A DNA stretch of 64,000 bases from Octopus vulgaris. Its lineage: Eukaryota. The notes beneath the pieces are model-generated. The model did no database searches, was not told where the DNA came from, and saw nothing but the letters and a program-made list of their open reading frames with translations. Below are positions 34,077 to 58,017 of the stretch, piece after piece (position 1 is the stretch's first letter; the number at the start of each line of letters is the position of its first letter). The stretch is from NCBI GenBank assembly GCA_951406725.2, contig OX597819.1, positions 4,092,001 through 4,156,000 on the forward strand, written 5' to 3'. The translations under genes and the position numbers were made by a program.

Positions 34077-35105
34077 TACATTTGCTTACAATCATATTTC
34101 TTTTCACAGCTAAATCAATGAAATTTATAAAATTTAAATCGCTTTATAGTTTCATCCGGTTTCTCAGTATTTCAGAATTAGGATTTCGTCCTCGGGAAAT
34201 ATTTGGAGAAAACTAGATTATCGCTGACTTATGCACACATACACACACGTAAGACTTGTGCATAGTTGCTGCTGTCAGTTATCATTCAAAGGGAAGACAT
34301 TGATCAAATCGTAGCTGAGAAAGAAGACACTTTCTCTTGGTGTCTTGCAAATGGTCTGATCGGGGAACCACTCGATTGAAAAGCAATGCTTCATCCACGA
34401 TGCCATATTTGGTTGTACTCATTGACTTCGATTACTATTTGACTGCATTTAAGAAATTATAATATGTTTCTGTCCACCTAGCCGAAAAGATTATATAAAT
34501 GGCGTGTTTTTGATGTTCTCGTCTTTCCTAAGAACAGAAAGCAAGAAATACTCTCGAATGTGACATTGAACACGCGTCGCAGAATCGACTTGTCAGGGGC
34601 GTACCACTGCTCCGTTGCACGTTCTTTGACTATTTTAATTGATAAAAGTTTTATATGTATGTATGTGTATGTTTGTTTGTATGTATGTATGTGTGTATGT
34701 ATGTATGTATGTATGTATGTATGTATGTATGTATGTATGTATGTATGTATTCATGTATGTATGAATACATATATGTGTGTATGTATGTATGTATGTGTGT
34801 GTATGTATGTTAGTGTATGTATGCATACATATATCTCCTTTCACTTGTTTCAGTCATTTAACAGCGGCCATGTATATATATATATATATATACATTGCCT
34901 GGGAGACTCTTCTTAAAGTAGAAGAAATAGCTAAATTCTTTGGCTGCTATTTCTAAAAGTTCGGTGTGTTGTAAAGCAATATTTTTGCTGAACCCCAATT
35001 ATATAAAGTAATGTTTAAATTTACCGTTAAATGGTCCTTTTACATACTGAACACTGCTTGGTAAAATTATTAATTACTAATTAATTAATTAATTTTACCT
35101 TTATT

Positions 35106-35182
<77 letters not shown>

Positions 35183-45353: not shown

Positions 45354-45426
<73 letters not shown>

Positions 45427-45885
45427 CCTATGCTCGCTTTCTTCAACTCTTTTGATGTCGCATGATCAGAAGGTTCGAGGTACGTAGCATTTGATAAATC
45501 TATTTTAATGGAGAGTTGCGCTGATGAAAGCTATGAAATATATATGCAATATATATTCAAAATATATATGAAATATATATTCAATATATTTGTTTTCTTT
45601 ATTTATTCCTTCTGTTTTGCATATATGAATTACAGGGATATGTCGTATGTGGAGTCCCATTGGTAGAAAATAGAAATAAACAGTCTTGACTGCTATTTCT
45701 AATTTTTCGGTATGCGGCCAAGCAACCTGTTGCCTGCCCCATTTATTTATGTACAATATATATACTGAATTTTACAGAAGTTCCTACCGTTAATCGGTTA
45801 TATTTACATACCGAATTCTACCAGTAAATAATTGTTGGTTTTTTTAAAAACCATTATAGAAATTATTTACTCTTATTATTATTAT

Positions 45886-50455: not shown

Positions 50456-50505
<50 letters not shown>

Positions 50506-50666
50506 TAAATAATTAGGGTTCAGCAAATATTTGCTTCATAGCAGCCAAAAAACGTTAGCTTATTTCTTCTACTTTAAAAAGGGACTCCCAGAAAAACCCA
50601 AATACTTGAAAACAATCCACACAGGCAGAGAGGAAGAAGTAACGAAAATCAATCAATATCTGGTCA

Positions 50667-50749
50667 CCTATGGACGCGCGTTTCGGAATTAGGTTGGAAT
50701 GAAGAATATAGAATTATACTTTACCGACCGTTTTCCTCTTCAGCATAGG
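50667..50749 (-). ncRNA. Type-I hammerhead ribozyme, canonical core with GUC site
   Basis: Minus: cctatg|CTGAAGA|ggaa..extended stem II..ttcc|GAAAC GCGC GTC|catagg; 6-bp stem I, palindrome ACGCGCGT; predicted cut between 50673 and 50672. Confidence 0.88.
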
Positions 50750-51040
50750 ACCCCATCAATAATTAAGTATTGAAATATTAAATTGGAAGGTACTAGAATA
50801 ATTGAACATATCTCTCCACCTAACGGTGACAGATAATATTCAGTGTTAGTATCGCCGAATTCAAAACATGAATGAGGTTCAATCACCCTCCCCTGCCCGC
50901 CCTCGTGTGTCTACAAGTAAACTACTACAGAAAAAAATATGTAGCTTGTTATCAGGGAGAAAATATTTAATTATATATATGTCTACATATATGTATAAAT
51001 ATATATACAAGTATATAATATATATACGTATATATATATG

Positions 51041-51085
<45 letters not shown>

Positions 51086-51096
51086 GTATATATATG

Positions 51097-51161
<65 letters not shown>

Positions 51162-51624
51162 AAACGAGATGATGAACAATTATCTGACGAACTTCATCCG
51201 CTTACAGCTGTTTCTGCTATGCGATGAAGTGAAACTCATGGTGAGTGCCAGATTAAAAGCTGTAAAACCTATAACTATACCATAAAAAGTGTTACTAAGG
51301 AACTCAAATATGACCCCACTGAATCTGATAGCAGAAACTGGTGTAACGTAATGAACTTCATAGATAATTATTTATTTTTTCGTCTTTTCATGTTCTTATT
51401 AACGTTCTGTACTCGTCTAATATTTCATTCTGAAGTATGTTGTGTATTGAGTTTTTACACCAGGTTGTATATGCATAAGCTGGGAAGTGAATGGAATGTC
51501 TGGTCTGTGTCTCGTTGTGGCTATCCGTCGTAAAAAAAAGGGGGAAATAGGGGGAAATATATGTATGAATATATGTATATATGTATATATATATACGAGA
51601 AAGAAGCAACAAGAATGGATTAGT

Positions 51625-51715
51625 TTTTAGTACAATTGTTTCATACAAAGACAGGCTTTATTACAAGTTGCAAAAATTGCAGCAGATAAAAGTGTCCCGT
51701 ACTCATCAGCTAAAA
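51625..51715 (-). ncRNA. Type-I hammerhead ribozyme, canonical core with GUA site
   Basis: Minus: ttttag|CTGATGA|gtacgggac..gtctttgtat|GAAAC AATT GTA|ctaaaa; 6-bp stem I, palindrome ACAATTGT. Confidence 0.85.
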
Positions 51716-57910: not shown

Positions 57911-58017
57911 AAAAATATGGAACGCTTCACGAATTTGCGTGTCATCTTTGCGCAGGGGCCATGCTAATCTTCTCTGTATCATTCCAATTTTAGAATATGT
58001 ACCGCCGTAGCTAGTAC
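57911..58017 (-). pseudogene. U6: U6 snRNA full-length copy (107 nt), probably a retro-pseudogene
   Basis: Minus: gtactagctacggcggtacatattctaaaattggaatgatACAGAGAagattagcatggcccctgcgcaaagatgacacgcaaattcgtgaagcgttccatattttt; ACAGAGA box and AGC triad present, several substitutions versus canonical U6. Confidence 0.95.

Follow-up and report, generated by a model that had tools for sequence, protein, structure and literature searches.

A truncated copy of a dispersed hammerhead repeat, most likely a non-autonomous retroelement, in a (TA)n tract of Octopus vulgaris

The stretch of Octopus vulgaris DNA analysed here (referred to as the window; 64,000 nucleotides, positions 4,092,001 to 4,156,000 of contig OX597819.1, assembly GCA_951406725.2) carries a type I hammerhead motif on its minus strand, within a copy of a repeat that we named family A. 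All core elements of a type I hammerhead (CUGANGA, GAAA and UH, with three helices and open at stem I) were present, and every piece named in a preliminary description of this DNA was found where that description had placed it. A strict descriptor (6/6 pairs in stem I, 4/4 in stem II and a 2-bp stem III) matched the window twice, at 50749-50667 and at 51715-51625, versus no match in 200 dinucleotide-shuffled windows; the motif at 50749-50667 is real and beyond chance. The features of the locus, and of related copies in the window, are the following:

50502-50964, minus strand: 5′-truncated family A copy (unit positions 1-484 of about 600), a putative non-LTR retrozyme or non-autonomous Penelope-like element (PLE)
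50458-50504: (TA)n target at the 3′ end of the element, one of two fixed family ends
50972-51157: imperfect (TA)n on the 5′-truncated side
50538-50539, minus strand: 21-bp deletion relative to family A, from the family alignment
Near 50828, minus strand: 4-bp deletion relative to family A, from the family alignment
50667-50749, minus strand: type I hammerhead motif with 6-bp stem I, CUGAAGA core, 4-bp proximal stem II, GAAA and GUC triplet
50749-50744 (CCTATG) and 50672-50667 (CATAGG), minus strand: strands of the 6-bp stem I
50743-50737, minus strand: core CTGAAGA
50736-50733 (GGAA) and 50688-50685 (TTCC), minus strand: proximal stem II, flanking the 52-nt insert (stems included)
50685-50736, minus strand: 52-nt stem II made of GGAA/UUCC, a 3×3 internal loop and a variable distal arm (predicted fold and family comparison)
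50732-50730 (AAC) and 50691-50689 (UAA), minus strand: the 3×3 internal loop of stem II
50726, minus strand: private substitution breaking one arm-helix pair
50684-50680, minus strand: GAAAC, followed by GCGC (50679-50676) and GTC (50675-50673)
50674-50681, minus strand: 8-nt palindromic stem III ACGCGCGU, the predicted intermolecular helix of a dimeric ribozyme
50673/50672, minus strand: predicted cut, after GUC
50661-50666, minus strand: UGA of a 3×3 stem I internal loop, then CCA pairing with UGG at 50755-50753 (predicted fold); candidate loop 1 for a tertiary contact
51715-51625, minus strand: family C hammerhead, the second strict type I match, with a 60-nt stem II and a GUA triplet
34890-35112, plus strand: family E fragment
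45426-45880, plus strand: family D fragment in which the second half of the hammerhead core has been lost

Rfam reported no hammerhead at its gathering score, nor at E ≤ 10 between 49 and 53 kb, likely because of the long stem II insert. Its output otherwise consisted of U6 at gathering score (a U6 snRNA gene or pseudogene at 57911-58017, minus strand, 108.5 bits) and of microsatellite-driven miRNA noise at low stringency. In the predicted fold, stem I is extended by TGG/CCA (50755-50753 with 50663-50661) past the 3×3 loop. The extension through ggtc/gacc that had been proposed earlier can indeed pair, but it shares C50749 with cctatg and is therefore an alternative register rather than a pure extension. 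The whole 106-nt construct (50655-50760) had a folding z of +1.02. Elsewhere in the window, 39294-39252 (minus strand) holds a small type I candidate with a 4-bp stem I, a 16-nt stem II and a near-palindromic stem III, while around 51175-51255 (plus strand) a hammerhead-like core (CTGACGA and GAAAC) has a long stem II that pairs well, but its stem I is poor and the usual order yields no standard cut triplet; this is possibly a rearranged or broken motif.

That the island around the hammerhead is itself a copy of a mobile repeat had been overlooked in the preliminary description. In the searched genome (2.8 Gb, 227 contigs), one exact pattern matched 44 times and a 19-mer 58 times versus none for control patterns, and the copy-number check thus returned a dispersed repeat. 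At least 55 family A matches were contained in the best 40 of 1472 candidates, which probably include related families too. The unit of about 600 bp, mapped on one natural copy, is non-coding and holds one type I hammerhead; in partial tandems its position 590 runs back into position 1. Locus L006 spans about 1.5 units, with two complete head-to-tail hammerheads 599 bp apart, and no longer family A array was present among the loci examined. The window copy is a lone monomer fragment, differing by 12 substitutions (8 of them private) from the column majority of 16 relatives, and family A copies in general lie 2-8% from the family majority, some of them being local duplicates.

The ends of these copies fall into a restricted pattern. 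Across 73 loci (some of them local duplicates), 56 outer 3′ ends lay at unit positions 478-490 and 40 at 580-595, with 9 elsewhere, and 24 of the 31 inverted two-armed insertions had one end at each of the two fixed sites. In the first 30 loci, the ends pass into (TA)n or comparable simple repeats. As for the earlier reading of a (TA)n-bounded island of 470 bp, the boundary at 50502 proved to be a true family end, but (TA)n is ubiquitous in the window (166 tandem-repeat rows). Partial tandems, inverted truncated copies, one-sided tails and microsatellite targets were all present in family A; PMC8557442 describes as traits of PLEs the targeting of (TA)n, partial tandem copies, a truncated copy in inverted orientation and a tail on one side. 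In 53 of 58 cases the copy continued past the cut site by more than 10 nt on its upstream side, implying that the template was uncut or re-ligated, and 5′ ends lay within 3 nt of the cut site in 4 of 58 versus 1.1 expected, a weak enrichment with two of the four in one locus. Family members are covered by contigs of seven sequencing runs guessed to be RNA and of one run of unspecified kind; no contig spans the stretch concerned, and ends or circles are not visible in contigs.

Several related hammerhead families accompany family A. Family B is 73% identical to it over unit positions 171-595 and has many tandem and inverted copies, including a 10-unit array (L149, G000:C8:3133783-3139511) with a spacing of 581-591 bp, a hammerhead in every unit and a longest open frame of 151 aa. 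Families D and E have a downstream block in common with family A and an identical hammerhead layout. In family D, a short-stem-II hammerhead at 45515 was considered and rejected, as relatives put the true GAAAC further on, in sequence that is absent from the window copy. Family C yielded 1633 candidates, with the best copies being 95-98% identical; four of its loci have 2.4-3.3 kb in common, including reverse transcriptase (RT) and endonuclease remnants, and its hammerhead sits 35 nt before (TA)n. To judge from these remnants, family C is the 3′ end of a Hydra-type PLE. Many further unrelated type I families were noted by chance in the flanks of examined loci (L016, L022, L023, L035, L038, L040, L052, L131, L135, L141 and L174); their stem III is palindromic and their inserts span 14-79 nt.

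The genome also holds intact PLEs, and two such families were sampled. The first encodes a 775-aa protein with Pfam RVT_1 and GIY-YIG domains and a CX4CXXC linker; it is very young, and at L111 (G000:C1:37061500-37071499) it comes with an upstream 557-aa frame and a terminal repeat of about 1 kb. A scan of five of its copies revealed no standard hammerhead. The second encodes a 727-aa protein for which neither Pfam nor PDB returned anything, and which would belong to the Hydra clade by its RWK, DKT and CxCX5C motifs, read against PMC8557442. Its young copies at L211-L216 are about 98-99% identical and show, by eye, a short hammerhead-like motif near the (TA)n end. The family A unit gave chance-level matches to 30 loci of the 775-aa group, except for nested copies in L051 and L056, and it had no match in 30 loci of the 727-aa group and one 24-bp match in six longer loci. 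Both were rejected as the parent of family A, as they share no real sequence with the unit; further PLE candidates number in the thousands. A PLE endonuclease remnant 1 kb upstream of the family A copy in L049 was likewise discarded as a parent, since the 3′ region of the older element continues, by eye, on both sides of the copy, which therefore looks nested. No frame with RT and GIY-YIG was found joined to A, B, D or E units in the loci searched (best 40 candidates per search), and in the window no long coding frame, PLE frames included, was recognised by eye among 47 frames of at least 120 aa, nor did the 775-aa protein match it. The PLE partner that mobilises family A is thus one that we infer.

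Taken together, we consider it probable that the island derives, in truncated form, from a dispersed hammerhead repeat of about 600 bp, which is non-coding and has (TA)n as its insertion target. The repeat would most likely be a non-autonomous retroelement (a non-LTR retrozyme) that PLE enzymes copy, and its hammerhead is predicted to cut as a dimer. Family A would then most likely be a new family within a known class, that of non-LTR retrozymes or non-autonomous PLE derivatives. Alternatively, the unit might be the terminal repeat (pLTR) of an unsampled autonomous PLE, of which the window copy would be a lone 3′ fragment. Family C, in the same window, is a case of such an arrangement, with a long-stem-II hammerhead that forms the 3′ end of an RT/endonuclease element of Hydra type, and rare full-length copies could escape searches in which the best 40 candidates were scored. 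However, unit position 1 is preceded by unit position 590 and not by a unique body, and sister family B forms its 10-unit array without a long frame. Moreover, translated searches with both PLE proteins matched few A or B loci (L272-L290 left out), and L049 and L056 look by eye to be nested in or beside an older PLE (L036, L123, L128 and L147 left out). We therefore regard the terminal-repeat explanation as unlikely.

The non-autonomous reading includes a prediction on how the hammerhead works. As a duplex, the stem III palindrome ACGCGCGU has a computed energy of -13.9 kcal/mol, whereas in the monomer stem III has a pairing probability of 0.008 and the active secondary structure is predicted 0.5% of the time. 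The unconstrained minimum-energy fold of two copies was the active dimer (-50.7 versus 2 × -18.1 kcal/mol), and the same co-fold was obtained from a typical family A copy and from a family B copy, but not from the family C copy of the window. On these folding predictions it seems reasonable to call the motif the best candidate for an active ribozyme in the window, as had been suggested earlier, since its two-copy co-fold, unlike that of the strict hit at 51715, is the active dimer. In their commonest form, families A to E all carry a perfectly palindromic stem III; in D and E it measures just 6 nt, too short for a monomer hairpin to close. The hammerhead is accordingly predicted by the models to cut only when two copies pair, which matches the dimer mechanism reported for animal type I and PLE hammerheads (PMC7229834, PMC4209133). 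Activity in such systems is variable: one of nine Xenopus retrozyme dimers cut in vitro and eight did not (bioRxiv 10.64898/2026.07.22.740005), and PLE hammerheads cleave poorly (PMC4209133). In our judgement, and on modelled folds, a tandem pair has about an even chance of cleaving measurably in vitro. A lone copy lacks a partner in cis, so the window locus is likely a silent ribozyme in the cell even if its RNA cuts at high concentration in the tube, and we rate the chance that the lone 50502-50964 locus does anything in the cell as low.

The version built on the preliminary description is that of an efficient monomeric ribozyme, in which stabilising tertiary contacts come from the long stem II arm as it bends back. 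Tertiary contacts are left out of account by energy models, and the motif does have canonical helix lengths (6 bp and 4 bp) with short loops at the places of loops 1 and 2 (UGA; UAA or UGA). Moreover, coral and mussel retrozyme monomers with a short stem III do cut (PMC7229834), as do newt monomers when stem I carries a looped extension (PMC6155905). Nevertheless, the weak point is stem III, which lies beyond repair by a stem II arm; all five families have it as a palindrome in their commonest form, and the 6-nt versions of D and E are too short for a monomer hairpin. The distal arm is variable in length and shows no two-sided change within family A, and any real monomer activity would be better credited to the proximal loops. 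This makes the monomeric reading very unlikely, and the dimer-dependent hammerhead of a non-autonomous repeat the preferred one.

Comparison of the copies supports 50749-50667 as a conserved hammerhead, as far as alignments can tell. The core was intact in 48 of 57 distinct family A sequences, a count that is partly circular, as 20 loci were chosen with a pattern containing the core; homologous copies thus keep the core, and it also persists across families otherwise diverged in sequence. When families A and B were aligned together, two pairs of stem I and two of stem II had changed on both sides, each of which probably reflects one or few events. Within family A alone, two-sided changes affected two pairs, a number reached in 100 of 500 shuffles, and RNAalifold chose another fold and did not recover the hammerhead. 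Compensatory changes were therefore found for stems I and II across the two families, but the arm helices had none within family A; some arm pairs also change two-sidedly across A and B, although this rests on a gapped alignment.

The arm itself turned out to be less exceptional than first described. Its ggtcgg/ccaacc helix is present, but with a C-A mismatch in the window copy; at the position concerned, 50726, the other family A sequences have T in 52 of 56, G in three and a gap in one, and by this comparison the mismatch is private damage of the window copy. The two arm helices named earlier are 95-98% paired in family A (57 distinct sequences), with no two-sided change. The arm folds only modestly and is not unusually stable (z = -1.35; 19 of 200 shuffles equally good). 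Nor is its length unusual, since long inserts are common in the Octopus vulgaris genome: in the loci examined, stem II inserts measure 60-61 nt in family B, 56-61 in C, 54 in E and 46-79 in about seven further families (listing read by eye), giving about ten other families at 46-79 nt, and range over 22-98 nt in related family D. The arm is a local family trait.

More regular are the short loops next to the core. UGA directly follows stem I in 42 of 46 family A sequences, 51 of 51 in B, 10 of 11 in D and one of two in E, and UAA or UGA immediately precedes the 3′ strand of the 4-bp stem II in 44 of 46, 51 of 51, 11 of 11 and two of two, respectively; family C has neither proximal motif. These motifs, which were picked post hoc in families that are related, sit at the distances canonical for loops 1 and 2, which are 6 bp and 4 bp for type I hammerheads (PMC4209133). 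Any tertiary contact would more likely use these core-adjacent loops than the distal arm. Families A, B, D and E might even form a dimer-gated type I subclass in which loop 2 is a 3×3 internal loop (ending in UAA or UGA) that docks on a 3×3 stem I loop (starting with UGA) while carrying a free variable arm, on which the borrowed PLE reverse transcriptase might, for instance, take hold; we offer this tentatively and think it unlikely. Our literature search returned nothing on a hammerhead class with long or extended stem II and nothing on family A, although subscription papers and supplements may contain some. Lunse et al. 2017 is reportedly a survey of PLE hammerhead variants. For cephalopods or the Hydra clade, PMC8557442 was the sole relevant paper found.

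The chance that family A instead resembles a satellite or a SINE, spread through copying of DNA or by an unrelated LINE, with the hammerhead as an inactive relic, seems close to negligible: although copies lie 2-8% off the majority and some are local duplicates, PLE-type target-primed reverse transcription fits the 5′ truncations of variable extent, the fixed pair of 3′ ends, the inverted arms and the termini in (TA)n, and the core has outlasted the divergence of the remaining sequence between families.

Under the preferred explanation of a non-autonomous repeat copied by PLE enzymes, tandem source loci would be transcribed as multimers, in which neighbouring hammerheads would pair via the ACGCGCGU palindrome and cut after GUC, freeing units of about 600 nt that may circularise. 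A PLE endonuclease would nick (TA)n, and priming by PLE reverse transcriptase would occur at either of two AU-rich sites separated by about 105 nt. Copying would then pass the cut site, often cover more than one unit and often start off both target strands, and most products, the window copy included, would be lone truncated copies that later decay.

Such a repeat has several counterparts among published systems. With animal non-LTR retrozymes (PMC7229834; bioRxiv 10.64898/2026.07.22.740005) family A shares a non-coding low-GC unit with one type I hammerhead, the occurrence of monomers, dimers and multimers, an occurrence together with PLEs and a short palindromic stem III. Its unit of about 600 bp compares with 170-400 nt in invertebrates (PMC7229834) and with 51-972 bp across families (bioRxiv 10.64898/2026.07.22.740005). 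It differs in its 52-nt stem II insert and in consisting mostly of dispersed truncated or two-armed (TA)n copies, and it is known here from DNA, whereas theirs is known as circular RNA. With the terminal-repeat hammerheads of PLEs (PMC4209133; PMC8557442, including the Hydra clade and Hydra-1_Obim) it shares the type I fold, a dimer-type stem III, partial tandems with an inverted truncated copy, a one-sided tail and a (TA)n target; unlike in those, no linked RT/endonuclease frame was found, and the tail is about 105 bp versus 30-40 bp. The 52-nt insert also contrasts with PMC8557442 File S2, whose Hydra rows have inserts of at most about 25 nt. The same file prints a precedent in PLE-X1_sMoe of Selaginella, with a 53-nt stem II insert (9 + 35 + 9), yet that element is from a plant, is endonuclease-less and rDNA-targeting, has a 9-bp proximal helix and is flagged as non-canonical in structure. 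Finally, the satellite hammerheads of newt and axolotl (PMC7229834, PMC6155905) resemble family A in their weak stem III with palindromic loop and looped stem I extension, and theirs cut better as dimers; they have a short terminal loop 2, where the loop 2 of family A would be an arm-bearing internal loop.

The repeat described here adds one retrozyme family to a genome already rich in such families. Its hammerhead illustrates that long-stem-II hammerheads are missed by Rfam, and probably by short-loop descriptors too. If the docking arrangement outlined above were true, natural hammerheads would keep their loop 1/loop 2 contact while bearing an extra RNA arm, and counts of animal retrozymes may fall short by a large class, with Rfam missing them; two-strand priming by PLEs would then also become directly testable through the two fixed priming sites, which lie about 105 nt from each other. 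The two fixed 3′ ends of family A document cleanly the way in which PLE enzymes seem to copy hammerhead RNAs.
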